A stretch of 15,425 nt of DNA from Candidatus Woesearchaeota archaeon (GTDB taxonomy: Archaea; Nanobdellota; Nanobdellia; SCGC-AAA011-G17; JAGVZF01): the NCBI GenBank assembly GCA_964549185.1, contig CAZJUI010000004.1:54637-70061 (forward strand), written 5' to 3'. Of the stretch, positions 3,098 to 15,419 are shown piece by piece. Position numbers and translations under genes: made by a program. Positions within the stretch are counted from its first letter, which is position 1, and each line of letters opens with the position of its first letter. A model generated the notes under the pieces. The model worked only from the letters and a program-made list of their open reading frames with translations, ran no database searches and had not been told where the DNA came from.

Positions 3098-3427
3098 ATG
3101 GAAAAACAAACTGTTGGGTTGGATGATTTATTGAAAACTAATTTCGAAGATGGAACTTTAGTAGAATATAAAAATGGATTTGGGTTTTCAGTTGAATGGG
3201 GTCGAGCTCATATCAGAAAAATGAAAATAGACGGTAAAAAACTTGAAATAGAAACAGATGGTGAAGCTCACTTGTATTTATCAGATATAAATCATATTCA
3301 TAGAGTTATAAGAGAGGGAGAGGTATTCTATTTGGATATTCCAATATTGTTTGGTTATGCTTTAGCTCCTAAGGGAGTAGAAATACCTAAGAAACCATCT
3401 TACGAGGGATTTATAAGAAGAAATTAA
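3098..3427 (+). CDS. hypothetical 109-aa protein translationally coupled to the thermosome gene
   Basis: The track ORF 3014..3427 overlaps the thermosome 3' end in another frame. The in-frame ATG at 3098 lies 1 nt after the thermosome TAA and is preceded by GGAG at 3090-3093. The product starts MEKQTVGLDDLLKTNFEDG. No recognisable family. Confidence 0.6.
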   Translation: MEKQTVGLDDLLKTNFEDGTLVEYKNGFGFSVEWGRAHIRKMKIDGKKLEIETDGEAHLYLSDINHIHRVIREGEVFYLDIPILFGYALAPKGVEIPKKPSYEGFIRRN

Positions 3428-3454
3428 AAAATAATACTTAAAATTCAAAGCTTG

Positions 3455-3461
3455 TTTTTTT
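3455..3461 (+). terminator. oligo-T tract (T7) after the thermosome operon
   Basis: GCTTGTTTTTTTA lies 28 nt after the stop at 3427. Archaeal terminators are typically oligo-T runs. Confidence 0.4.
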
Positions 3462-3463
3462 AT

Positions 3464-3757
3464 TCATATTACCCTATTTTTTTCGAGAAACTGTTTTATC
3501 TCACTTACCTTTCTCGGATTTAAAGAAATATGATTAGAAGAATCTTTTCCTGTTCTTTTTATTAGAATAATAACCCATTCATTTCTTATTAATTCTTTTA
3601 TTGTTTTTTCTACTTCTTTCCTTCCTTTATGTGTACTGCGATAATGCTCTGGAATTCCCTTAATTACAAAATTAAGAGGAGTGTGTTTTCCTCCCCAGAG
3701 ATTACCGCGAACCAATTTTTGAAGAATAAGTTTTTTCAAAATATTTATGTCTTCCAT
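3464..3757 (-). CDS. small basic protein, 97 aa, possible winged-helix DNA-binding fold
   Basis: The ORF starts MEDINILKKLILQKL. The segment EVEKTIKELIRNEWVIILIKRTGKDSSNHISLNP resembles a recognition helix plus beta-wing. It is divergent from the wHTH regulator gene. The functional call is weak. Confidence 0.5.
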   Translation of the reverse strand: MEDINILKKLILQKLVRGNLWGGKHTPLNFVIKGIPEHYRSTHKGRKEVEKTIKELIRNEWVIILIKRTGKDSSNHISLNPRKVSEIKQFLEKNRVI

Positions 3758-3802
3758 ATATAAATATAAAACAATAAAGTTAATAATAGTTTCTTTAACT
3801 TT

Positions 3803-3820
3803 TTATACATTGATGTATAA
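3803..3820. promoter_or_regulatory. perfect 8-2-8 palindrome, candidate operator
   Basis: TTATACAT-TG-ATGTATAA lies 5 nt upstream of the BRE/TATA of the regulator gene at 3860, within the divergent intergenic region. Confidence 0.45.
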
Positions 3821-3824
3821 TAAC

Positions 3825-3838
3825 GAAAGGTTTAAATA
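3825..3838 (+). promoter_or_regulatory. BRE/TATA promoter of the wHTH regulator gene
   Basis: GAAAGGTTTAAATA. TTTAAATA starts at 3831, exactly 29 nt before the ATG at 3860. Confidence 0.6.
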
Positions 3839-3859
3839 TTTACTTGTTTTATTAAAATT

Positions 3860-4189
3860 ATGAAAGAAGATTCAATATTTTTAGATCATGTTGGAGATAA
3901 TCCAAGAATGAGAATATTACAATACTTGATAGAAGGCAGAGATTTTGATTACACATTAACAGATATGCTCAATGCTAAAGTAAGTTGGGGTACTTTAAAT
4001 AGCATAGTACCAAAACTTCTAGAACTTGGATTATTGATAAAAACAAGAAAAATTGGAAGAGCAACTCTTTATAAGATTAATAAAAATAACATTGCTGTAA
4101 AGAAATTAATTGAATTGTATGATAATTTAATTCTACAGAAATTAGAAAACTTAGATAAAAATATGAAAAAGAAAGAAATTATAGCTTAA
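3860..4189 (+). CDS. winged helix-turn-helix transcriptional regulator (ArsR/TrmB-like), 109 aa
   Basis: NPRMRILQYLIEG...YTLTDMLNAKVSWGTLNSIVPKLLELGLLIKTRKIGRATLYKIN is a typical HTH plus wing (GRxxLYxIN) pattern. It is followed by a C-terminal coiled-coil-like tail. Confidence 0.75.
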   Translation: MKEDSIFLDHVGDNPRMRILQYLIEGRDFDYTLTDMLNAKVSWGTLNSIVPKLLELGLLIKTRKIGRATLYKINKNNIAVKKLIELYDNLILQKLENLDKNMKKKEIIA

Positions 4190-4254
4190 TTAGTTAAAAA
4201 AATTAAAGATATTACACACCATTATAGTCCGAAAAATTTTATTTAATACCCAAC

Positions 4255-4323
4255 TTTTTTTCTAATTCTAACAAAGCTTTTTTATCTGCTTCATGAAGTT
4301 TTTTGTTTGTAGTTTTCCTTTTT
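4255..4323 (+). terminator. cluster of oligo-T tracts downstream of the regulator gene
   Basis: T7 at 4255-4261, T6 at 4278-4283, T6 at 4299-4304, T4 at 4313-4316 and T5 at 4319-4323 on the plus strand. This is compatible with archaeal multi-T termination. It competes with a 40-aa minus-strand ORF call (see findings). Confidence 0.35.
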
Positions 4324-4490
4324 GAAGAACCTCTAAGTTTTGTAAGATTTATAGTTTTCATGATATTATTAATTATTTATTAAGTAACATTTAAGCTTTT
4401 CTAATTCTTATAATAAAAGATTTGATAATATCTTAATTTTATCTTTAAGAATATATTTTCCTCTATCTATTGTGTAACTCTAGAGTTAAA

Positions 4491-4507
4491 CAACCTTATT
4501 TTTAAAC
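4491..4507 (+). promoter_or_regulatory. BRE/TATA promoter of the NHL-hydrolase gene
   Basis: CAACCTTATTTTTAAAC. The T/A box starts at 4500-4501, 28-29 nt before the ATG at 4529. Confidence 0.5.
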
Positions 4508-4528
4508 TTTTATTTTATTATATAAGAT

Positions 4529-6619
4529 ATGAGTGGTGACAAGCTAAAAAGAGAAATCAATCTTTATGGAAGTATTTTATTATCCTTAGCTATGCTTGGA
4601 TGTGGTGGAAAGAAAGCTACAATTCCAGAAGTTAGAGATGAAAAAACAGTTACTATTGGAGTTAATGGCGGAAATATAGAATTAAATGGAATGAAATTAG
4701 ATTTTAGAAGAAATTGTTTTAGTGAAGATACAGAAGTAATAGTAAGAAAAGTTAATCCGAACATTAATGCTGAATATCAAGACGCTAGATCATTAGAAAT
4801 AAAATTAGAAAATACTGCTAAAGATACAATATTTGTAAGTTCTGATAAGGATGGCATAGGAACATATGAAAGAGATGGAATAAAACATATTACTAAAGTA
4901 GAAAATTTAAAATTTGGAATACCACCAAGAAACCAAATTACAGGATTAGAAGATATAACAACAGCTTCTATAATAAACGGAAAGAAAAATGAATATAAAT
5001 TAATTTTTAATAGATATGATGGAAATTCTAAAAAACCAATTGTTGTTTTTATTCATGGATTGAATAGTAATTCTAGAACCTTTGATTTTTTAAGAGAGGG
5101 AATACCAAGTGATTATGATGTTGTGAGTGTAGAATATGATTTTGAAGAAAGCACAGAAATAAGTGTTGAGAAAATAAAAAGTTTTTTAGCTACTCTTTCA
5201 ACAGATAGAGAAATTTATGAAATAGATCATAGCAAAGGATGTGAAGTTGGATTGGATGTGGCAATAAATGATAAAAGAATAAAGAAAATAGTACAGCTAG
5301 GACCACCAAATAGGGGATTTATTACAAAAGAGGAAAGTTTAAACAAAAGTTTAGAAGCATTAGTTAATTCTGAGATGTTAGAAAATTTACTTAATATAGG
5401 AGCTTTTGGGATTGTTATTCCGACTAAATTGATTAACCAAGGAACTAAAGATATGATCGTTAATAGTCCTTATATGAAACATTTAAACCAGGCTCATGAT
5501 TTAACTAATGTTGATTTATTAATTATAGGTGGAGAATACAATTCAGGAAATCTTGATTCAATATTAGAAAGACCCCATGATGGATTATTATCTTGGATAA
5601 CCTCTAATTTTAATCTATTTCCAGGTAATGTTTTACATCCGAGATTTTTAAACATATTTACAGATTTACAGAATTCAAGCCATGGGTCTATGGTAAGAGA
5701 ACAGCAAACTTTAGATAAGATACTGGAATTTTTAGAAAAAGAGAATTCAGGTATTATAACACCAAAATATGCTTTACAGTGGGGGGGCAATGGAAATGCT
5801 AATGGACAGTTTAAAAAACCATATGGAATCGAAGTCGATGATATGGGAAATGTTTATGTTACAGATTCTGAAACTAATAGAATTCAAAAATTTACAAGTG
5901 ATGGAAAGTTTATCAGCAAATTTTCTTTGAGCAGCCAATTTCTTTCAAAAATGCCTGTTGGAATAGAGATAGATAATAACAATAATATTTATGTTATAGA
6001 CAAAATTGGAGACCGTGTAAATAAGTTTGATAAGGATGGCAAACAAATTGGTGGATGGGGTTCTCATGGTTTAGCGGGAGGTTATTTTTTTGATCCTTGG
6101 GGAATAGCAGTTAATGAAAATGATGAGGCATATGTAGCAGATGCTTTAAACAACAGAATTCAAAAATTTACAAGTGATGGAAAGTTTATCACACAATGGG
6201 GGGCAAAAGGACCATTTAATCAAGGGGGAAGTGGCGATGGGGAATTAATATCCCCAAGTGGGATTGCTTTTGATGATATGGGAAATGTTTATGCTGTAGA
6301 TAATAATAGTAGAGTACAGGTATTTGACAGCAATGGAAAATTTTTAAGAAAGTTTGCATCTACTGGCAGTGGAGATGGACAGTTATTTAGACCGTTGGGA
6401 ATTGCTATAGATGTTAATGGGAAGATTTATGTAGTTGATACAGGAAATAATCGTATAGAAATTTTCAATAATGATGGAAGCTTTATTACTAAGTTCGGAT
6501 ATTATGGATCAGATAATGGACAATTCGCCAGTCCGGCAGATATTGCTTTAGATAGAGATGGGAAGATTTATGTATTGGATACGAATAATTACCGTGTTCA
6601 GAAATTTGAATATAAATAA
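4529..6619 (+). CDS. predicted lipoprotein: alpha/beta-hydrolase (lipase/esterase-like) domain fused to a six-blade NHL-repeat beta-propeller
   Basis: 696 aa. Signal/lipobox SILLSLAMLGC. Hydrolase features are VVFIHGLNSNS (HG oxyanion motif), DHSKG at 5225-5239 (nucleophile elbow with Asp in place of the first Gly), then PHDGLLS and SSHGSM as possible acid and His. Six NHL repeats of the type G-x-F-x-P-x-GIA-x-D-x-x-G-x-IYV-x-D-x-x-N-x-RIQ-x-F lie from about 5771 to the end. Confidence 0.85.
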   Translation: MSGDKLKREINLYGSILLSLAMLGCGGKKATIPEVRDEKTVTIGVNGGNIELNGMKLDFRRNCFSEDTEVIVRKVNPNINAEYQDARSLEIKLENTAKDTIFVSSDKDGIGTYERDGIKHITKVENLKFGIPPRNQITGLEDITTASIINGKKNEYKLIFNRYDGNSKKPIVVFIHGLNSNSRTFDFLREGIPSDYDVVSVEYDFEESTEISVEKIKSFLATLSTDREIYEIDHSKGCEVGLDVAINDKRIKKIVQLGPPNRGFITKEESLNKSLEALVNSEMLENLLNIGAFGIVIPTKLINQGTKDMIVNSPYMKHLNQAHDLTNVDLLIIGGEYNSGNLDSILERPHDGLLSWITSNFNLFPGNVLHPRFLNIFTDLQNSSHGSMVREQQTLDKILEFLEKENSGIITPKYALQWGGNGNANGQFKKPYGIEVDDMGNVYVTDSETNRIQKFTSDGKFISKFSLSSQFLSKMPVGIEIDNNNNIYVIDKIGDRVNKFDKDGKQIGGWGSHGLAGGYFFDPWGIAVNENDEAYVADALNNRIQKFTSDGKFITQWGAKGPFNQGGSGDGELISPSGIAFDDMGNVYAVDNNSRVQVFDSNGKFLRKFASTGSGDGQLFRPLGIAIDVNGKIYVVDTGNNRIEIFNNDGSFITKFGYYGSDNGQFASPADIALDRDGKIYVLDTNNYRVQKFEYK
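5879..5915 (+). repeat. 37-nt exact intragenic repeat, copy 1 (NHL blade 1)
   Basis: AGAATTCAAAAATTTACAAGTGATGGAAAGTTTATCA is identical to 6155-6191. It encodes RIQKFTSDGKFI. Confidence 0.9.
6155..6191 (+). repeat. 37-nt exact intragenic repeat, copy 2 (NHL blade 3)
   Basis: Identical to 5879-5915. A second exact 22-nt pair, GATGATATGGGAAATGTTTATG, lies at 5837-5858 and 6272-6293. Confidence 0.9.
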
Positions 6620-6620
6620 T

Positions 6621-7420: not shown

Positions 7421-7433
7421 AAAGGTTTAAAAG
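7421..7433 (+). promoter_or_regulatory. BRE/TATA promoter of ftsY
   Basis: AAAGGTTTAAAAG. The TATA starts at 7426, exactly 29 nt before the ATG at 7455. This supports 7455, not the TTG at 7443, as the start. Confidence 0.6.
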
Positions 7434-7454
7434 GACTTTTTCTTGCTAAAATTT

Positions 7455-8693
7455 ATGTTTAAATTTTTAAAAGATAAGTTAAAAGGAGCTATAGAGAAAT
7501 TTACTAAAAAAGTAGAAGAAGAAGTTCCTGAGAAAGAAGTAGAGATAGTTAAAGAGGAAATTAAAGAACAGGCTAAAGAAAAACCTAAGAAAGAGGAGAA
7601 GGTTAAAGTAAAAAAAGTTAAAGAGAAAAAGCCTAAAGAAGAAAAAATAGAAGAAAAAAAAGAAGAGAAAGAAGAACCAATCATTGAAGTTAAAGAAGAG
7701 ATTAAACCAACAACTGAAACAAAAGAAGAAAAAAAGAGCTTCTTTGATATCTTTAAGAAAAAGAAAGAGGAAGTTAAAGAAGAATCTAAATTAGAAGAAA
7801 AAAAAGAAGAGAAGAAAGGATTTTTTGAACAGGTTAAAGAAAAGATAACAACTAAAGTTATTAATGAAAAACAATTTGATGAGATGTTTTGGGATTTAGA
7901 GATGGCATTATTAGAGAATAATGTTGCTGTTGAGGTTATAGAAAAAATAAAAGAAGATTTAAAGAAAGACATTACAAATAAACCAATAAAGAGAAATGAG
8001 GTTGAGAAAGAGATTACTGAAAGTTTGAAGAAATCAATAGAAGATTTATTTAATGTAAGTCCTATCGATTTGTTAAAAGAAGTTAAAGAGAAAAAAGAAA
8101 AACCTTATATTATTGTATTTGTTGGAATTAACGGCTCGGGAAAAACTACCTCGATATCTAAAATAGCTCATTTTTTACAAAAGAATAATTTAAAAGTTGT
8201 TATGGCTGCTGCTGACACTTTTCGCGCGGCATCAATTGAACAATTAGAAGAACATGGAAAAAAATTAGGAATAAAAGTTATAAAACATGATTATGGAAGT
8301 GATCCTGCTGCTGTTGCTTTTGATGCAATAAAACATGCCAAGGCTAAAAATTTAGATGTTGTTTTGATAGATACAGCCGGAAGATTACATTCAAATACTA
8401 ATTTGGTTGATGAAATGAAGAAGATTGTGAGAGTAACACACCCTGATTTAAAAATATTTGTTGGGGAAAGTATAACTGGAAATGATGCTGTAACTCAATC
8501 AGAAGAATTCAATCAGGCAATTGGAATTGACGGCATTATTTTAACTAAGAGCGATGTAGATGAGAAAGGTGGCGCTATAATCTCTGTTTCTTATGTTACA
8601 CAAAGACCCATACTTTATTTGGGAATTGGGCAAGGTTATGACGACTTAAAAGAGTTTGATAAAGAAGAAATTGTTAAAAGCTTAGGTTTATAA
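7455..8693 (+). CDS. ftsY: signal recognition particle receptor FtsY
   Basis: 412 aa from the ATG at 7455 (MFKFLKDKLKGAIEKF). It has a lysine/glutamate-rich N-terminal A-domain followed by an NG domain. GTPase motifs are G1 GINGSGKTT (8124-8150), DTAGRLH and TKSDVD, and the C-terminus is GIGQGYDDLKEFD. Confidence 0.95.
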   Translation: MFKFLKDKLKGAIEKFTKKVEEEVPEKEVEIVKEEIKEQAKEKPKKEEKVKVKKVKEKKPKEEKIEEKKEEKEEPIIEVKEEIKPTTETKEEKKSFFDIFKKKKEEVKEESKLEEKKEEKKGFFEQVKEKITTKVINEKQFDEMFWDLEMALLENNVAVEVIEKIKEDLKKDITNKPIKRNEVEKEITESLKKSIEDLFNVSPIDLLKEVKEKKEKPYIIVFVGINGSGKTTSISKIAHFLQKNNLKVVMAAADTFRAASIEQLEEHGKKLGIKVIKHDYGSDPAAVAFDAIKHAKAKNLDVVLIDTAGRLHSNTNLVDEMKKIVRVTHPDLKIFVGESITGNDAVTQSEEFNQAIGIDGIILTKSDVDEKGGAIISVSYVTQRPILYLGIGQGYDDLKEFDKEEIVKSLGL

Positions 8694-8738: not shown

Positions 8739-9437
8739 ATGAAGGGGGAAAATCAATTTACCGTTAAAGAGCCTAATCTCGAGCCTTCAGAGGAATTATC
8801 TTATTTGCTTGGTGTACTAAAAGGTGATGGATGCATTTATAAAACCACAAATAAAGGTAATAGAGATAAAGCAGATTACCTTATACAATTAGGGGTAAAA
8901 GATTTAGATTTTGCAATAGCCTTCAATGACACTTTAGAGAAAATATTCTTTAGAAAAGCAACTATAATAACTATTAAAAATGGTTCAGGAAAATTATTTA
9001 GAGTAGCCTTAAGAGTAAAATTTTTTTATAAATGGTATAAAAATCAAAAATTCAGTGAGCTATGTAAGATTGTTGAAGAATATCCAAGTGGATTTATAAG
9101 AGGTTTTTTTGATAGCGAAGGATCTATAGGTATTGCTTCTAGACATAAAGAAAACCTTTACCTTTCAATACGTTTTGCTAATTCAAATATCCAGACTTTA
9201 ACTTTTATTAAGAAATTATTAAAGAATAATTTTAATATAGAGTCAACAATAAAGAAAAGAATTGTAAATGCACGCACTATAGATGGACGTTTATGCAATT
9301 TTACTAAACCTGTTTATGTATTAGGATTCTATAGGAAGGCTTATATAGAAACATTTTTTAACGAAATAGGTACTTCAATTAAAAGAAAAAGCATGGAGGC
9401 GATTATGAATGGTAGTGGGACATTGTATGAAATGTAA
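8739..9437 (+). CDS. free-standing double-motif LAGLIDADG homing endonuclease (I-DmoI-like architecture)
   Basis: 232 aa. Motif 1 is LSYLLGVLKGDGCIY (8796-8840) and motif 2 is SGFIRGFFDSEGSIG (9087-9131). This gives a catalytic Asp in motif 1 and Glu in motif 2. As I recall the I-DmoI sequence, it has the same arrangement, including the YLLG..GDG..Y....GNR and VYVL segments. There are no Hint/intein blocks and no flanking exteins. Confidence 0.9.
   Translation: MKGENQFTVKEPNLEPSEELSYLLGVLKGDGCIYKTTNKGNRDKADYLIQLGVKDLDFAIAFNDTLEKIFFRKATIITIKNGSGKLFRVALRVKFFYKWYKNQKFSELCKIVEEYPSGFIRGFFDSEGSIGIASRHKENLYLSIRFANSNIQTLTFIKKLLKNNFNIESTIKKRIVNARTIDGRLCNFTKPVYVLGFYRKAYIETFFNEIGTSIKRKSMEAIMNGSGTLYEM
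9395..9399 (+). promoter_or_regulatory. Shine-Dalgarno site of the zinc-ribbon ORF, embedded in the endonuclease gene
   Basis: GGAGG with a 9-nt spacer to the ATG at 9409. Confidence 0.5.
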
Positions 9438-9555
9438 GGTTCAAAGAGAAATGAAGAATGAAAAAGAAGTTGTTATGAAAAATGGAATGAAAGCTATGTC
9501 CGGTGTTTGTAGCAACTGTGGAACAAAAATGTTCAAAATCATAGGTAAGAAGTAA
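9409..9555 (+). CDS. 48-aa zinc-ribbon protein (CxxC...CxxC; resembles the DUF5679-type small proteins), not in the supplied ORF track
   Basis: My translation is MVVGHCMKCKVQREMKNEKEVVMKNGMKAMSGVCSNCGTKMFKIIGKK. It has two CxxC knuckles (CMKC and CSNC) and the tail CGTKMFKI. A GGAGG SD lies upstream. Its first 29 nt overlap the 3' end of the LAGLIDADG ORF in another frame. Confidence 0.7.
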   Translation: MVVGHCMKCKVQREMKNEKEVVMKNGMKAMSGVCSNCGTKMFKIIGKK

Positions 9556-9571: not shown

Positions 9572-10123
9572 TTATTCATAACCCGGAATTAAGAATCTAG
9601 ATCTTCTTACAAACCAATCTTGTTTTAAAACAGCACTTCTAATCATATCATGATAACTTTCATTATGGAAATATTCTTGACGAAGTAAACCTTCTTGTTT
9701 AAAACCTATATTTTCAGTTATATGTTTCATTTTTGAATTTGTAACATAGAAGATTGCCCAAATTTTATTTAATTGTAAATCATTAAAAGCTATTTCTAAA
9801 ACACGATTAATAGATAAAGTTGCATAACCCTTATTTTGATGTTCTTTTTTTATTATTAATCCAAGTCTACCATTTCTAGCAGGCCAATAAATATTATTAA
9901 TTCCTACTTGACCGATATATTCATGCTTTTCATTTTCTATTGAAAAAACTTTATCTGTTTCTGAAGCTAATAATCTTTCTAAGAATTGTTTTTCTTCTTC
10001 TCTTGTGATATTATGATTAAAACTTGCTAAATTTTTAGTAACTTCAGGATCATTTATCCAGATCATTACATTATCTAAGTCATCTAAAGATAATTGTCTT
10101 AAGTGAATTTTACGTTCTTTCAT
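9572..10123 (-). CDS. GNAT family N-acetyltransferase (RimJ/RimL-like)
   Basis: 183 aa. LRQLSLDDLDNVMIWINDPEV is followed by the acetyl-CoA motif HQNKGYATLSINRVLEIAF, and the C-terminus is GFKQEGLLRQEYFHNESYHDMI, typical of the RimL-like subgroup. Confidence 0.85.
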   Translation of the reverse strand: MKERKIHLRQLSLDDLDNVMIWINDPEVTKNLASFNHNITREEEKQFLERLLASETDKVFSIENEKHEYIGQVGINNIYWPARNGRLGLIIKKEHQNKGYATLSINRVLEIAFNDLQLNKIWAIFYVTNSKMKHITENIGFKQEGLLRQEYFHNESYHDMIRSAVLKQDWFVRRSRFLIPGYE

Positions 10124-10145
10124 AATTTTAAAAGAAAATCATCTA

Positions 10146-10158
10146 TTTATAAATGTTA
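10146..10158 (-). promoter_or_regulatory. BRE/TATA promoter of the GNAT gene
   Basis: Minus strand reads TAACATTTATAAA. The TATA starts at 10153, 30 nt upstream of the ATG at 10123. Confidence 0.55.
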
Positions 10159-10181
10159 CTTTTTAAAAGTGGTTAATATAG

Positions 10182-10196
10182 GAAGGTTTATAAATA
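10182..10196 (+). promoter_or_regulatory. BRE/TATA promoter of the aldehyde dehydrogenase gene
   Basis: GAAGGTTTATAAATA. The TATA starts at 10187, 42 nt before the ATG at 10229. This predicts a short leader of about 12-13 nt without an obvious SD. Confidence 0.5.
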
Positions 10197-10228
10197 GGCT
10201 ATTTGATAATTTTTATTAGAAAATCAAG

Positions 10229-11821
10229 ATGAAAACACCTACATTACAAGAAAGAATAGAAAATATTTTTCCTAAAGAATTACCAGAAAGATTTAATGAT
10301 ATTATTCCATATAAAGATGGAAATACTTATTTAATTGATGGAGAGATAAGAAGAGCTGAAAGAACTTCTCCTGTTTACTCTAGCGTTTGTCTAATGAGAG
10401 ATGGAAAACCTGAAAGAGTGCTTTTAGGAAATTATCCAATGTTAACAGGCGAAGAATCAATGAGTGCTTTAGATGCTGCTGTAAAAGCCTATGATAATGG
10501 AAATGGTGCATGGCCATCTATGACAATCAGAGATAGAATGATTGCTTTAAGTAATTTTGTTGATAGAATGAAATTACAAAGAGAAAATGTTGTTAAACTT
10601 GAAATGCTTGAAATAGGAAAAAATAAAAGAGAAACTGAAGCTGAATTTGATAGAACTGTAAGATATATTGAAGATACAATAGAAGAAATGGGTAATTTAT
10701 CAAAAAGAGAAGATGGAAATGGGACTTTAGCTTACTTAATAAGAACACCAAATGGCGTAGCATTATGTATGGGACCTTCTAATTATCCCTTAAATGAGAC
10801 ATTTACCACATTACTTCCAGCATTAGCAATGGGAAATACAGTAGTTTCTAAAAGCCCTAAAATTGGAATGTTATGTTTAACTCCTTTGTATGAAGCATTT
10901 AGAGAAAGTTTTCCTGAAGGTGCAATAAATTTTATTAATGGAGATGGAAGAGAGATAATAACTCCAATAATGCAATCTGGGAAATTAGATGTTTTTGCTT
11001 TCATAGGATCAAGCGGAGCTTTTGATAAGATATTAGAAAATTATCCAAGAATCAGAAAACTTAAGATAAATGCAGGATTAGAAGCTAAAAATCCTGGAAT
11101 TATTTTAGAAGATGCTAACCTTGAAGATACAGTAAATGAATGTGTTAAGGGAGCATTAACTTATAATGGACAAAGATGTACAGCACTTAAGATATTATAT
11201 ATTCCTATATCAAGAGCAGATGAATTTGTAGAAAGATTAAGTGATAAAGTTTCTAATTTAAGCATTGGAATGCCATGGGAAAATTCAAACATAACCCCAT
11301 TACCAGTAAATGTTGATTATTTTACTAAATTTGTATATGATGCTGTAAGCAAAGGGGCTAAAGTTGTTAATCCAGAAGGCGGAAAGATAAATGGAAGTTT
11401 CTTTTTTCCAGCTGTTTTATATCCTGTAACTCCTGATATGAATATTTATAATCAAGAGCAATTTGGACCTGTTGTTCCAGTTGCTGTTTATGATGATATA
11501 AAAGAAGTAATCGAAGCTATACAAAGATCTAGATATGGACAGCAAGTAAGTATTTTTGGCAATGATTATGAAAATGTAAGAAGAATAACAAATGAACTAA
11601 GAAATCATGTTTCTAGAATTAACTTAAATACACAATGTATGAGGGGTCCAGATAATCTTCCATTTACTGGAAGAAAAGATTCTGCTGTTGGAACATTATC
11701 AATAAGAGATGCTTTAGATTTCTTTTCTCAGCCATTTGTTGTCGGAACTAAATTTGGAATTAGAGATTCTGAGTTGTTAACTGAAACAACTAATTTTTTA
11801 GATAATTGTGATTCAGAGTAA
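10229..11821 (+). CDS. gapN: aldehyde dehydrogenase family protein, GapN-like (non-phosphorylating glyceraldehyde-3-phosphate dehydrogenase type)
   Basis: 530 aa. The catalytic Cys is in YNGQRCTALK (TGT 11177-11179). Other motifs are GPSNYPLN, FIGSSGAF and EQFGPVVP. The GapN-type C-terminal motif is LNTQCMRGPDNLPFTGRKDSAVG, compared with my recollection of S. mutans GapN (NNKTQRGTDNFPFLGAKKSGAG). Substrate specificity is inferred only. Confidence 0.8.
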   Translation: MKTPTLQERIENIFPKELPERFNDIIPYKDGNTYLIDGEIRRAERTSPVYSSVCLMRDGKPERVLLGNYPMLTGEESMSALDAAVKAYDNGNGAWPSMTIRDRMIALSNFVDRMKLQRENVVKLEMLEIGKNKRETEAEFDRTVRYIEDTIEEMGNLSKREDGNGTLAYLIRTPNGVALCMGPSNYPLNETFTTLLPALAMGNTVVSKSPKIGMLCLTPLYEAFRESFPEGAINFINGDGREIITPIMQSGKLDVFAFIGSSGAFDKILENYPRIRKLKINAGLEAKNPGIILEDANLEDTVNECVKGALTYNGQRCTALKILYIPISRADEFVERLSDKVSNLSIGMPWENSNITPLPVNVDYFTKFVYDAVSKGAKVVNPEGGKINGSFFFPAVLYPVTPDMNIYNQEQFGPVVPVAVYDDIKEVIEAIQRSRYGQQVSIFGNDYENVRRITNELRNHVSRINLNTQCMRGPDNLPFTGRKDSAVGTLSIRDALDFFSQPFVVGTKFGIRDSELLTETTNFLDNCDSE

Positions 11822-12222: not shown

Positions 12223-12286
12223 AGATTTTTTAATTTGCCTTTTTATACTTATATATTTTAATGTATTATATGGCATTTTACTATAT

Positions 12287-12301
12287 AAAAACACTTATAA
12301 A
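12287..12301 (+). promoter_or_regulatory. BRE/TATA promoter of srp54
   Basis: AAAAACACTTATAAA. The box starts at 12294, 30 nt before the ATG at 12324. Confidence 0.55.
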
Positions 12302-12323
12302 TCATAAAATAAGCTAGTTCCTT

Positions 12324-15300
12324 ATGGTAATGGATAAATTAAGCAGCAGTTTGAGAAACACATTAAAGAAGATAGCTGGAACTATGTTTGTTGATGAGAA
12401 ATTAATAGATGAGTTAATAAAAGACATACAAAGAGCACTTTTACAATCTGATGTTAATGTTCAATTGGTGTTTAATTTAAGCAAAGATATTAAGAAAAGG
12501 GCTTTAGAAGAAAAACCAACAAAAGGAATAAGTGCAAAAGAACATTTAATTAAAATTGTTTATGAAGAGTTAGTTAAATTTTTAGGTAAAGAACAAAAAG
12601 GAATTGAAATTAAAGATAAGAAGCCATTTAAGATCATGATGGTTGGACTTTTTGGGTCGGGAAAGTGCGTTCATAAAAATAGTAAAATTCCATTAAGTAA
12701 TGGAGAGATATTAACAGCTGAAAAAATATATGAGAGGTATAGTGATAAAGAGCTTATTATAGAAGACGGCTCAATAATTGACATAGAAAAAGAAGATTTG
12801 ACTGTTCCTTCTTTTAATCCCAAAACCCTAAAAATAGAAGAGAAGAAAGTGACAAAATTATGGAAGTTAAATGGAAAAGATTTACTTCAAGTATATTTAG
12901 ACAATGGCAATGATTTTAGTGTTAGAGTAACACCTGAACATCCTTTCTTTGCTTTAAGAAACAATGTTGTAAAAAGGATCCGAGCTGATGAATTGACAGA
13001 AGATGATGTAATCGCAGTTCCATTCAATTATGAAACTATAGGTAAAGAACAGAACTTATTTAAAGAACTTAAAGAACTAGATTTAGATATAAAGCATAAA
13101 ACTGATATCACCCCAATCAACATTAAAAAAGAGATTCTTCCGAGACTGAAATTTAATAGGAACTATTGCCAACTTACGGCCGATTTTAGATTAGGGATTA
13201 CACCAATATGTTTAGTTGATTCTATTAATACAGAAACAGTTGAAGTAAAAAAGAGATATTGTAAAAAATTTATAAAATTTCCAGTTAATGTTACTCAAGA
13301 CTTAGCTGAATTTATGGGATATGTAATTGGCGATGGGCATTTAGGAAAAGACTACGTTGAAATTACAAATGAAGATCCTGAAATAATACACAGAATTATT
13401 CAACTTTCCGAAAAACTTTTTGGACTAAGAATTTATATAAAAGAAGATAAAAGAACAAAAGCTACAAAACATTTAGTTATAAGCTCAAAGACATTGGTAG
13501 AAATTTTAAACAAGATATTTGAGATTCCAATAGGGAAGAAAGGAAAAAATCTTAGAATCCCAAAACAAATACAAAAGAGCGATAATATGGTCATTAAAGA
13601 ATTCTTAAGGGCTTATTTCGATTGTGATGCTTCCCCTGCAGATAATTCAAGAAATATAGAACTATGTTCTGAAAGTAAGGAGATAATAACTGATGCTAGC
13701 TATCTCTTAAATAGATTTGGAATAATATCTTCGATATCACGAAAAATAATTAATAATATCCCGTATTGGAGATTATATATCTCAGGTCGTTATGCTGAAA
13801 ATTATGCTAAAAAAATTGGCTTTATTGTAAAACACAAGAAAGAAAGAAGTGAGCAATATTCTTTAATAGGGACCATCCAGGGTTGTGGAGATCAAGATAT
13901 GATAGTTTTTGGCAATTCTTTAAAAGTTTTAAGGCAAAATTTAGGGTTTACCATTGGAGAGATACAGGAATATGTAAATAGTTATGGAATTTATGAAAGA
14001 ATAGGTGAAATATCTAGAGAAAGTTTATCAAAATTAATTGCATTATATTATTTGAAGAAAAAGGGAAATGTCCATGTGATTTTAGAACATTTGCAAAGCA
14101 AAAATTCACAATTAAGTAACGCCTTTATTAACGGTTTTAGTTCTTATCTAAAAAAAGAGAATTTTATAGCTGAGAATAATGGGCAATTATTGCTTACACA
14201 AAGGGCACTAGATTATTTAAATATAAGCATTAACAAGCAAGAACTATTAGAGCCATTTAGAAATATAGTGAGATCAGATGTGTGCTGGATTAAAATAAAA
14301 AAAATAGAAAACATTGGTAAAGTTGACTTTGTTTATGATTTAACAGTTGAAGATAATCATAGCTTTATTGCTGATGGAATTATTGTTCACAATACAACGA
14401 CTATAGGAAAACTTGCAAAATATTATTCAAAAAGAAATTATAAGGTAGCTGCTGTTGGATTAGATGTTCATAGACCTGCTGCGCCTGAGCAATTAGAGCA
14501 AGTTTGTAAACAAGTTAATGTGCCTGTTTTTATTGATAAAAAAGAGAAAAGTGCATTAAAAATTTATGAGAAATTTGAGAAAGAATATGGTAAATATGAT
14601 ATTTTAATAATAGATACAGCTGGAAGAGATGCTTTAAGCAAAGATTTAATTGAAGAAATTGAAAGTTTAAATAAGAAGATAAAACCAGATGAAAGATTAT
14701 TAGTTATAAGTGCTGATATTGGACAGGCTGCACAAAAACAAGCTGAGCAATTTCATCAAAGTGTAGATATTACAGGAGTTATTGCAACTAAGATGGATGG
14801 AACAGCTAAAGCTGGAGGGGCATTATCTGCTTGTAGTGTAACTAAAGCTCCTATAAAATTTATTGGTGTAGGTGAAAAAATAGATGATTTAGAAGCTTTT
14901 GATCCTGAAGGTTTTGTTTCAAGATTACTCGGAATGGGAGATTTAAAAGCTTTATTGGAAAAAGCTCAGGAAGCAATGGATGTTGAGACAGCTGAAGATT
15001 TAGGAAAGAAGTTTTTGAAAGGAGATTTTAATTTTCTTGATTTATATGAACAGATGCAAGCTATGAGAAAAATGGGACCATTAAGTAAAATAATGGAACT
15101 TGTTCCAGGAATGGGAAATATGAATATTCCTAAAGAAATGTTGCAAGTTCAGGATGATAAGTTAAAGAAATGGAAATTTATTATGCAGAGCATGACAAAA
15201 GAGGAATTAGAAGAACCAGATGAATTACTAGATAGAAGCAGAATAGACAGAATAGCTAAAGGTTCAGGAACAACAGGTCATGAAGTTAGAGAGTTGTTAA

Positions 15301-15419
15301 AACAATATAGACAAAGCAAGAAGGTTGTTAAGTTAATGAAGGGAATGGATGATGAGAAAGATATGAATAAGTTAATGAAGAAATTCCAGGGAAAAATGCC
15401 TAAGGGTTTTGGGATGTAG
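12324..15419 (+). CDS. srp54: signal recognition particle protein SRP54 precursor, interrupted by an in-frame intein
   Basis: 1031-aa ORF. The N domain starts MVMDKLSSSLRNTLKKIAG..FVDEKLIDELIKDIQRALLQSDVNV. The G1 motif is split as GLFGSGK / TTTIGKLA. After the insert come DTAGRD, TKMDGTAKAGGALS and GVGEKIDDLEAFDP, then the methionine-rich M domain (MQAMRKMGPLSKIMELVPGMGNM). The exteins sum to 455 aa. Confidence 0.95.
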   Translation: MVMDKLSSSLRNTLKKIAGTMFVDEKLIDELIKDIQRALLQSDVNVQLVFNLSKDIKKRALEEKPTKGISAKEHLIKIVYEELVKFLGKEQKGIEIKDKKPFKIMMVGLFGSGKCVHKNSKIPLSNGEILTAEKIYERYSDKELIIEDGSIIDIEKEDLTVPSFNPKTLKIEEKKVTKLWKLNGKDLLQVYLDNGNDFSVRVTPEHPFFALRNNVVKRIRADELTEDDVIAVPFNYETIGKEQNLFKELKELDLDIKHKTDITPINIKKEILPRLKFNRNYCQLTADFRLGITPICLVDSINTETVEVKKRYCKKFIKFPVNVTQDLAEFMGYVIGDGHLGKDYVEITNEDPEIIHRIIQLSEKLFGLRIYIKEDKRTKATKHLVISSKTLVEILNKIFEIPIGKKGKNLRIPKQIQKSDNMVIKEFLRAYFDCDASPADNSRNIELCSESKEIITDASYLLNRFGIISSISRKIINNIPYWRLYISGRYAENYAKKIGFIVKHKKERSEQYSLIGTIQGCGDQDMIVFGNSLKVLRQNLGFTIGEIQEYVNSYGIYERIGEISRESLSKLIALYYLKKKGNVHVILEHLQSKNSQLSNAFINGFSSYLKKENFIAENNGQLLLTQRALDYLNISINKQELLEPFRNIVRSDVCWIKIKKIENIGKVDFVYDLTVEDNHSFIADGIIVHNTTTIGKLAKYYSKRNYKVAAVGLDVHRPAAPEQLEQVCKQVNVPVFIDKKEKSALKIYEKFEKEYGKYDILIIDTAGRDALSKDLIEEIESLNKKIKPDERLLVISADIGQAAQKQAEQFHQSVDITGVIATKMDGTAKAGGALSACSVTKAPIKFIGVGEKIDDLEAFDPEGFVSRLLGMGDLKALLEKAQEAMDVETAEDLGKKFLKGDFNFLDLYEQMQAMRKMGPLSKIMELVPGMGNMNIPKEMLQVQDDKLKKWKFIMQSMTKEELEEPDELLDRSRIDRIAKGSGTTGHEVRELLKQYRQSKKVVKLMKGMDDEKDMNKLMKKFQGKMPKGFGM
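12666..14393 (+). mobile_element. 576-aa class-1 intein with LAGLIDADG homing endonuclease domain, inserted in the SRP54 P-loop
   Basis: Cys1 (TGC 12666-12668; CVHKNSKIPLSNG is block A) and block B VTPEHPFF (TPEH at 12930-12941). LAGLIDADG motifs are LAEFMGYVIGDGHL (13302-13343) and VIKEFLRAYFDCDASP (13590-13637). Block F is DFVYDLTVEDNHSFIADG, and block G IIVHN ends at 14393, followed by Thr +1 (ACA 14394-14396). Confidence 0.93.

Follow-up and report, generated by a model that had tools for sequence, protein, structure and literature searches.

What is a segment of 576 amino acids (aa) doing inside the GTP-binding loop of an archaeal SRP54, the GTPase of the signal recognition particle (SRP)? 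The question is raised by the srp54 gene at the right end of a 15,425-nt stretch of a Candidatus Woesearchaeota genome (GCA_964549185.1, contig CAZJUI010000004.1, positions 54,637–70,061), the whole of which is referred to here as the window. The evidence makes it highly probable that the segment is a genuine class-1 intein with a double-motif LAGLIDADG homing endonuclease nested inside it, placed at GLFGSGK/TTT of srp54 (the slash marks the insertion point) in a DPANN archaeon of the Woesearchaeota/Nanoarchaeia type; that it splices and homes; and that it belongs to an old, sporadically distributed lineage which has crossed between P-loops.

The inserted element and the empty site

The srp54 precursor is the last open reading frame (ORF) of the window, and its frame is open without a break across 3,096 nt (coordinates of all features are given in Table 1). 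Codon 115 is TGC (Cys, nt 12666-12668), codon 690 is AAT (Asn, nt 14391-14393) and the codon following the intein, at nt 14394, is ACA (Thr), giving junctions that read ...KIMMVGLFGSGK / CVHKNSK...IIVHN / TTTIGKLAKYY. Removal of residues 115-690 in silico leaves a 455-aa SRP54 with the P-loop GLFGSGKTTT and the junction peptide IMMVGLFGSGKTTTIGK, and the corresponding spliced junction DNA is ...GGACTTTTTGGGTCGGGAAAG/ACAACGACTATAGGAAAA... The N, G and M domains of archaeal SRP54 were all found, in order, and all passed Pfam cutoffs on the precursor (SRP54_N, residues 6-83; SRP54 GTPase, residues 691-870, profile positions 15-196; SRP_SPB, residues 902-1001), with the GTPase profile resuming at its position 15 exactly at precursor residue 691. 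The spliced extein aligned with the SRP54 of P. furiosus (3dm5; E=6e-135, residues 1-441) and was also colinear with that of M. jannaschii (3ndb), in both cases without a gap in the P-loop. The gene looks single-copy. The equivalog cutoff of TIGR00959 (ffh, 473.2 bits) was missed by both the precursor (423 bits) and the spliced form (448 bits), as was that of TIGR01425 (SRP54_euk, 393 vs 576), yet the best NCBIfam matches were ffh/SRP54 by a wide margin. The intein was considered, and rejected, as the sole cause of the failed curated models: the shortfall survives its removal, which recovers only about 25 bits, so part of it has another origin.

Both ends of the insert score as intein splicing sequences and its middle as an endonuclease. 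Pfam Intein_splicing matched with E=7e-30 (104 bits, cutoff 35.8), TIGR01445 (intein_Nterm) with E=3e-11 (44.3 bits, cutoff 24.5) and TIGR01443 (intein_Cterm) with E=1e-10 (41.4 bits, cutoff 15.6), while LAGLIDADG_3 matched in two stretches with E=5e-22 (78.5 bits, cutoff 22.5). At the sequence level the N-terminal Hint region matches the inteins PI-PkoII and PI-PfuI, and the endonuclease core matches the endonuclease of the TliVMA intein (E=1e-26). When the intein was aligned with 12 homologues, the residues Cys1, Thr89, His92, Gly222-Asp223-Gly224, Lys292, Asp319, Asp558, His565, His575 and Asn576 proved invariant in all 13 sequences, and the catalytic position 321 is Asp in 11 of them, the window included. 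Cys1 is invariant across all 57 SRP54/FtsY loci. Motifs and profile scores of this kind are far beyond chance.

An empty allele shows where the insertion begins and ends. Among intein-free SRP54 proteins the nearest is P0045 (79% identity), encoded on L001, a contig in synteny with the window, the common gene order being thermosome, an ORF of about 250 aa, ftsY, a variable spacer and srp54. By BLASTN, window nt 12284-12664 correspond to L001 nt 9962-10341 and window nt 14413-15418 to L001 nt 10362-11364; since both srp54 flanks align, what sets the window apart from the empty allele is an insertion of exactly 1,728 bp. The same junctions were found in L003, an independent assembly (Nanoarchaeia metagenome-assembled genome (MAG) SMAG_U8169) in which the intein is 90% identical to that of the window and the exteins are 95–96% identical (N-extein, 96.5% aa identity). 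The recurrence of these junctions in L003, and of the architecture in at least 54 other species representatives, rules out a chimera of the assembly. The third-codon-position GC content of the intein (0.205) equals that of the extein (0.204), and in composition the element thus fits its host.

Selection was measured as the ratio of nonsynonymous to synonymous substitution rates (dN/dS) between the window and L003. Every part of the intein, the endonuclease included, is under purifying selection (Table 1), which argues, from this one pairwise comparison, against a decaying endonuclease.

An AlphaFold2 model of the intein, built on the 13-sequence alignment, gave a mean predicted local distance difference test (pLDDT) score of 87.9 and a predicted template modelling (pTM) score of 0.84. 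In it, a beta-rich Hint domain is predicted to form from both termini, and two alpha-beta-beta-alpha-beta-beta-alpha halves are nested between blocks B and F. The predicted helices of the first half span residues 211-223, 238-252 and 275-284 and those of the second half 307-321, 338-349 and 375-383, with two strands between successive helices. A Foldseek search of the PDB returned the TliVMA intein (7qss) as the closest structure (E=3e-28, template modelling (TM) score 0.82, normalised to target), followed by PI-PkoII, PI-PfuI, PhoVMA and then PI-SceI, which are all endonuclease-bearing inteins. Mini-inteins superposed on the Hint part with root-mean-square deviations of 1.6–2.6 Å over about 125 residues, and the endonucleases I-DmoI and I-Tsp061I matched the model with TM scores of 0.64–0.78 (normalised to target). 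The linker has the lowest pLDDT of the model (63–67), and its alignment columns ~150-205 are gapped in three homologues (P0008, P0009 and P0012). The conserved helical module that follows the endonuclease core (residues 389-535) is modelled with pLDDT mostly of 80–94. Pfam gave no match to this module or to linker residues 126-205 even at E<=10. WhiA, which combines LAGLIDADG with a helix-turn-helix (HTH) domain, aligned with the model across about 340 columns and has its HTH at the position of the helical module; one homologue (P0034) is labelled by JGI as carrying an XRE-family HTH domain. The module may be an accessory DNA-binding domain.

The first-pass annotation, made from the letters of the window and a list of its ORFs, had read srp54 as a 1,031-aa ORF from which residues 115-690 could be taken out to leave 455 aa and restore GLFGSGKTTT, and these coordinates are exact. 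Its reading of GINGSGKTTS in the ftsY gene of the same window also holds, and all of the class-1 elements that it listed are present (Cys1, TPEH, two LAGLIDADG motifs with their acidic residues, block F, terminal His-Asn and Thr+1). The proposed clean 576-aa insertion at GK/TT is borne out by the gap-free alignments to 3dm5 and 3ndb and by L001, which aligns on both sides of the 1,728 bp. Hint and LAGLIDADG profiles scored well above cutoffs, with a predicted fold like that of endonuclease-bearing inteins, and the chimeric junctions that it had named as a risk were not found, given the identical junctions of L003 and the same architecture in the further genomes.

Table 1. Features of the 15,425-nt window. 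Amino acid numbers within the intein count from Cys1. The dN/dS values are Nei-Gojobori estimates from the single pairwise comparison of the window with L003.
Feature	Position (nt)	Strand	Description	dN/dS
srp54 precursor ORF	12324-15419	+	1,031 aa plus stop; N-extein, intein, C-extein	
N-extein	12324-12665	+	114 aa; SRP54 N domain and first half of Walker-A/G1 loop, ends GLFGSGK	0.03
Intein	12666-14393	+	576 aa, 1,728 bp, Cys1 to Asn576; based on profiles, homologue alignment, model and empty-site allele	0.12
N-terminal Hint splicing region	12666-13040	+	Blocks A and B, Cys1; TIGR01445 on precursor residues 115-209; beta-rich in model	0.15
Block B	12930-12941	+	T89-P-E-H92, intein residues 89-92	
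Variable linker	13041-13280	+	DNA-recognition-like segment between Hint-N and endonuclease; partly missing in 531-537-aa variants	
LAGLIDADG endonuclease core	13281-13820	+	Double-motif; Pfam LAGLIDADG_3, two stretches	0.18
LAGLIDADG motif 1	13302-13343	+	LAEFMGYVIGDGHL; FMGYVIGDG, catalytic D223	
Conserved K292	13527-13550	+	In endonuclease core	
LAGLIDADG motif 2	13593-13634	+	IKEFLRAYFDCDAS; LRAYFDCDA, D319/D321	
Extra helical module	13830-14270	+	Intein residues 389-535; between endonuclease core and C-terminal splicing region	0.07
C-terminal Hint splicing region	14271-14393	+	Blocks F and G; TIGR01443 on precursor residues 669-691	0.05
Block F	14328-14372	+	FVYDLTVEDNHSFIA; D558 and H565	
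Block G	14373-14393	+	DGIIVHN, ends His575-Asn576, then Thr+1	
C-extein	14394-15419	+	341 aa plus stop; +1 Thr (= Walker-A Thr), rest of G domain, M domain	0.05
ftsY, uninvaded	7443-8693		Walker-A GINGSGKTTS	
ftsY Walker-A, paralogous target	8124-8153	+	GINGSGK/TTS; K/T junction between 8144 and 8145	
Free-standing LAGLIDADG_3 ORF	8739-9437	+	232 aa, E=4e-14; starts 45 bp downstream of ftsY	
DUF5679-like zinc-ribbon ORF	9409-9555		48 aa; overlaps 3' end of the 8739-9437 ORF in another frame	

Distribution and exchange with ftsY

Relatives of the intein were sought in archaeal genomes, one per GTDB species, and 342 confirmed stretches were recovered, the best 80 of which were used for host counts. 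Of these 80, 54 are hosted by SRP54, at the same GK/TT, so that at least 54 species representatives, most of them DPANN and scattered over several groups of archaea, are invaded there; three more are FtsY-hosted, all at GK/TT. The remainder sit at the equivalent lysine of aEF-2 (AH[VI]DHGK/TT), SMC (GPNGxGK/SN) or MCM (GDPGTGK/S). A protein search with the intein returned 44 clusters, about 35 of them SRP54 or FtsY, at 32–57% identity, from Nanoarchaeota, Woesearchaeota, Aenigmarchaeota, Micrarchaeota and Thermoplasmatota MAGs. Wherever the junctions are complete, the matching inteins start with Cys1 directly after the Walker-A lysine, end in His-Asn and are followed by Thr or Ser at +1. The same Walker-A position is used in all complete relatives, whether the host is SRP54 or FtsY or, for the more distant ones, a TadA-like ATPase, aEF-2, RecA (P0038, P0039 and P0042, at GxxSGK/TT), SMC or MCM. 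The 120 closest homologues of the spliced extein (68–79% identity), on the other hand, are all 445–468 aa long and intein-free. Since these lack the element while at least 54 representatives carry it, its presence within the lineage of the window is sporadic, and sporadic presence combined with empty sites in relatives is the pattern expected of a homing element.

Copies at the same site differ in length and condition. Full-length forms measure 576–606 aa, others of 531–537 aa lack most of the linker (L044, L046 and L048 are among the variant loci), and one homologue, P0043, is a 200-aa mini-intein without LAGLIDADG. The L050 copy has an in-frame stop, and the FtsY-hosted P0010 has Gly at the second catalytic Asp. 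These variants probably represent different stages of the homing cycle and of endonuclease decay. A sub-clade of SRP54-hosted inteins with the P-loop GLYGQGK (L022, L029, L031, L033, L037-L039, L041, L045 and L056, and P0026) occurs in MAGs labelled Thermoplasmatales/Thermoplasmatota rather than DPANN; if these labels are correct, the element has passed from one phylum of archaea to another.

The relatives also include inteins in ftsY, the paralogue of srp54 (P0001, P0002, P0004, P0007, P0010, P0034 and P0035; loci L019, L020 and L042). The first five of these proteins are among the closest relatives and have the intein at GINGxGK/TT, no M domain and a C-extein of about 183 aa. The inteins of these five share 47–50% identity with the intein of the window, and FtsY-hosted inteins reach up to 62% with other SRP54-hosted inteins, which is as near as they are to each other, whereas the host G domains of SRP54 and FtsY share 32–35%. 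The SRP54/FtsY duplication is ancient and preceded the last universal common ancestor. Given an ancient duplication and inteins this similar, the intein must have moved between the two genes much later. In the window, the uninvaded ftsY site and the srp54 homing site have 18/30 central nt identical. Neighbor-joining trees group the window firmly with L003-L008 (bootstrap 100) and scatter the FtsY-hosted inteins among the SRP54-hosted ones, with weakly supported internal nodes; in a larger tree, the deep bootstraps were unusable (rooting mismatch, saturated distances). Pairwise identities were used to argue for transfer because of this weak internal support.

In 17/17 loci with both genes visible, srp54 was invaded and ftsY empty; L042 and L020 show the reverse arrangement, with ftsY invaded and the adjoining srp54 uninterrupted. 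No doubly invaded locus was seen among the loci examined, possibly a sampling effect. It is conceivable, though we hold it doubtful, that a single intein lineage shuttles between SRP54 and FtsY by way of near-identical Walker-A DNA and never occupies both genes of one locus. Such exclusivity, if real, could reflect a fitness ceiling, two slow-maturing essential partners being too costly, or a regulatory role in which splicing would time SRP-dependent membrane targeting in DPANN.

Mechanism, alternatives and genomic setting

The pathway proposed for this intein is that of a class-1 element. The 118-kDa precursor would be unable to bind GTP because the intein splits the Walker-A loop. An N-S acyl shift at Cys1, aided by Thr89 and His92 of block B, would form a thioester, and the +1 Thr, doubling as the obligatory Thr of Walker-A, would attack it to give a branched intermediate. 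Cyclisation of Asn576, aided by His575 and by Asp558 and His565 of block F, would free the intein, and an O-N shift would form the Lys114-Thr115 bond of a normal 455-aa SRP54. Autocatalytic excision with ligation of the exteins is a prediction, supported indirectly by the intact residues and by the strong purifying selection on the exteins of an apparently sole srp54, and the first-pass annotation reasoned, from the essential nature of SRP54, that the element must splice efficiently. The freed 576-aa intein would be a site-specific endonuclease, a LAGLIDADG pseudo-dimer using Asp223 and Asp321, that cuts intein-less srp54 alleles around the GK/TT codons; repair from an invaded copy would then spread the element. 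Cleavage of the intein-less allele is likewise predicted, and the dN/dS of 0.18 in the core is indirect support for it. On this reading the lineage is old in DPANN and has passed from P-loop to P-loop, between SRP54 and FtsY and, at a more remote date, among other P-loop nucleoside triphosphatases (NTPases). Since every relative recovered has Thr or Ser at +1, the Walker-A site offers a ready nucleophile, and constraint on this residue by its role in the NTPase may help to explain why P-loops are intein hot-spots.

Several points weigh against an intein that still splices and homes. Splicing, present-day endonuclease activity and the recognition sequence are all deduced from sequence. We know of no established route in DPANN for the allele-to-allele contact that homing requires. 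The trees give weak support on how often, and in which direction, the intein passed between SRP54 and FtsY. The synonymous divergence (dS) of the intein between the window and L003 (0.41) is close to that of the exteins (0.54–0.57; a single pairwise estimate), and this similarity fits co-inheritance since the two lineages split rather than recent homing. The nearest empty allele, that of L001, has only 18/30 central target nt in common with the spliced junction of the window and so differs at 12. The last two points, together with the full amelioration of the intein to host composition and the decay seen in relatives (the Gly of P0010, the stop of L050 and the mini-intein P0043), would also suit a splicing-competent but domesticated or "stranded" intein, whose endonuclease cuts no natural target and which persists by vertical descent because a cell that deleted it imprecisely would lose an essential P-loop and die. 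That explanation is less likely, if far from negligible: the window retains the two catalytic Asp residues as well as the conserved Lys, the dN/dS of the core (0.18) and of the helical module (0.07) would not be expected of a dead domain, and sporadic distribution with transfer between paralogues requires endonuclease activity at least in the recent past.

A split GTP-binding loop means that the precursor must be inactive, and the intein has been kept in many lineages, both of which would fit a conditional protein splicing switch, in which SRP54 would stay off until splicing is allowed by redox state, temperature or some other signal and co-translational targeting to the membrane would thereby be gated. 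This is very improbable, as the 120 closest SRP54 homologues manage without an intein, the distribution resembles that of a selfish element, and no cysteine of the intein was singled out as placed for a disulfide trap with Cys1. The reading of the locus as chimeric assembly, as a pseudogene or as a Hint/LAGLIDADG insertion that does not splice can be regarded as effectively refuted. The window does come from a probably metagenomic assembly, and the spliced SRP54 falls just below the TIGR00959 cutoff (448 vs 473 bits), but against this stand the unbroken frame of 3,096 nt, the identical junctions of the independent MAG L003 and of no fewer than 54 other genomes, the extein dN/dS of 0.03–0.05, the intact and invariant splicing residues, and an extein whose three SRP54 Pfam domains pass their cutoffs and which aligns to a solved SRP54 with E=6e-135. 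A homing, splicing intein remains the preferred reading of the locus.

The rest of the window contains a second LAGLIDADG gene, the free-standing ORF at nt 8739-9437, which keeps the acidic residues of its motifs (LLGVLKGDG and FIRGFFDSEG), gave no NCBIfam match and is missing from the syntenic relative L001. It was considered as a relative or remnant of the srp54 intein and rejected: BLASTP similarity is limited to the generic motif, and it is a separate gene. The 181-aa ORF at nt 7427-7972 (minus strand), antisense to the Lys/Glu-rich N-terminal region of ftsY, is most likely spurious and a product of low-complexity AT-rich sequence. No RNA genes (SRP RNA, tRNA) were found nearby. Compared with L001 (nt 5823-5874), the window has about 3.5 kb of extra DNA (nt 3100-6620) between the thermosome gene and the ORF of about 250 aa upstream of ftsY; this extra DNA includes the gene of a 696-aa NHL-repeat beta-propeller protein (nt 4529-6619). 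The ftsY-srp54 spacers differ as well: that of the window encodes a GNAT acetyltransferase and an aldehyde dehydrogenase, that of L001 a different set of small ORFs.

Comparison with known systems

SRP54 and FtsY are used as universal marker genes. The NCBI records mostly name their invaded forms "LAGLIDADG family homing endonuclease, partial" (e.g., P0002, P0003, P0019, P0021 and P0031), and invaded genes misnamed in this way may be missed or mis-scored as markers. The first-pass annotation had suggested that the insertion site or allele might be undescribed. This stands in so far as a literature search found no paper on an SRP54, Ffh or archaeal FtsY intein, although a listing in InBase or in survey supplements is still possible; it does not stand as a claim of rarity, since the allele is common in public MAGs under the name just given and is not a one-off. 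Neither SRP nor signal recognition particle appears in the main text of Novikova et al. 2016, and among the NCBIfam "exception" models for intein-containing proteins none was returned that matches an intein-containing SRP54. The annotation described the P-loop as a recurrent intein site; in published work it is the commonest insertion location (PMC4513877, PMC4760082).

The finding adds the co-translational targeting machinery (SRP54, and FtsY in sister genomes) to the archaeal P-loop intein hosts and brings out a wider family of "Walker-A lysine" inteins. It also provides a clean prokaryotic case in which an intein has passed from one ancient paralogue to another and, at greater distance, among unrelated P-loop NTPases. 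Most documented examples of such jumps, whether from paralogue to paralogue or from one P-loop to the next, are so far eukaryotic (PMC10710043). More speculatively, meganucleases of new specificity might be derived from the element, or a splicing tool with Thr at +1, the source being low in GC and presumably mesophilic.

The closest known counterparts by both sequence (E=1e-26 to the endonuclease core) and structure (TM 0.82) are the TliVMA and PhoVMA inteins (7qss, 7qsu, 7qst; PMC8966425), which likewise are full-length class-1 inteins, hosted by an archaeal NTPase and with a double-motif LAGLIDADG endonuclease nested within them. They differ in their host (the V-ATPase A subunit), in sharing only about 20% identity, and in their size of 360–430 aa, without the helical module of about 145 aa. 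The P. horikoshii RadA intein and site c of bacterial RecA (PMC4513877) share the position inside the Walker-A loop, but the RadA intein structures (2lqm, 4e2t/4e2u) comprise about 170 aa compared with 576 aa including an endonuclease, and the hosts are DNA-repair ATPases rather than a protein-targeting GTPase; conditional splicing has been shown for RadA. Nearer in host type is the Thermococcales aIF5B/IF-2 intein (PRK14845) of a translational GTPase, which aligns over the whole intein of the window (E=3e-38), and with it the aEF-2-hosted relatives at the equivalent G1 position AH[VI]DHGK/TT. These aIF5B and aEF-2 inteins belong to other GTPase families and share 24–27% identity, and the IF-2 insertion point is deduced from profile coordinates.

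The alpha subunit of the eukaryotic SRP receptor is the homologue of FtsY. An intein in the SRP receptor of Rhizophagus is mentioned in a figure legend by Gallot-Lavallee et al. 2023 (PMC10710043) as related to an IF-2P intein, with intragenomic transfer to that other GTPase inferred. It resembles the intein of the window in having an SRP-family GTPase as host but is eukaryotic and resides in the receptor, not in SRP54. PI-SceI, PI-PfuI and PI-PkoII (1vde, 1dq3, 2cw7) show the same combination of Hint, LAGLIDADG and accessory DNA-binding regions and are significant structural matches, although they share 10–16% identity, occupy other hosts (VMA1 in the case of PI-SceI and non-SRP54 archaeal proteins in the two others) and have accessory domains that are not obviously homologous to the helical module. 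Set beside these systems, the srp54 intein, apparently undescribed in print, is a canonical bifunctional intein: host and allele are new, but the kind of element is well known.

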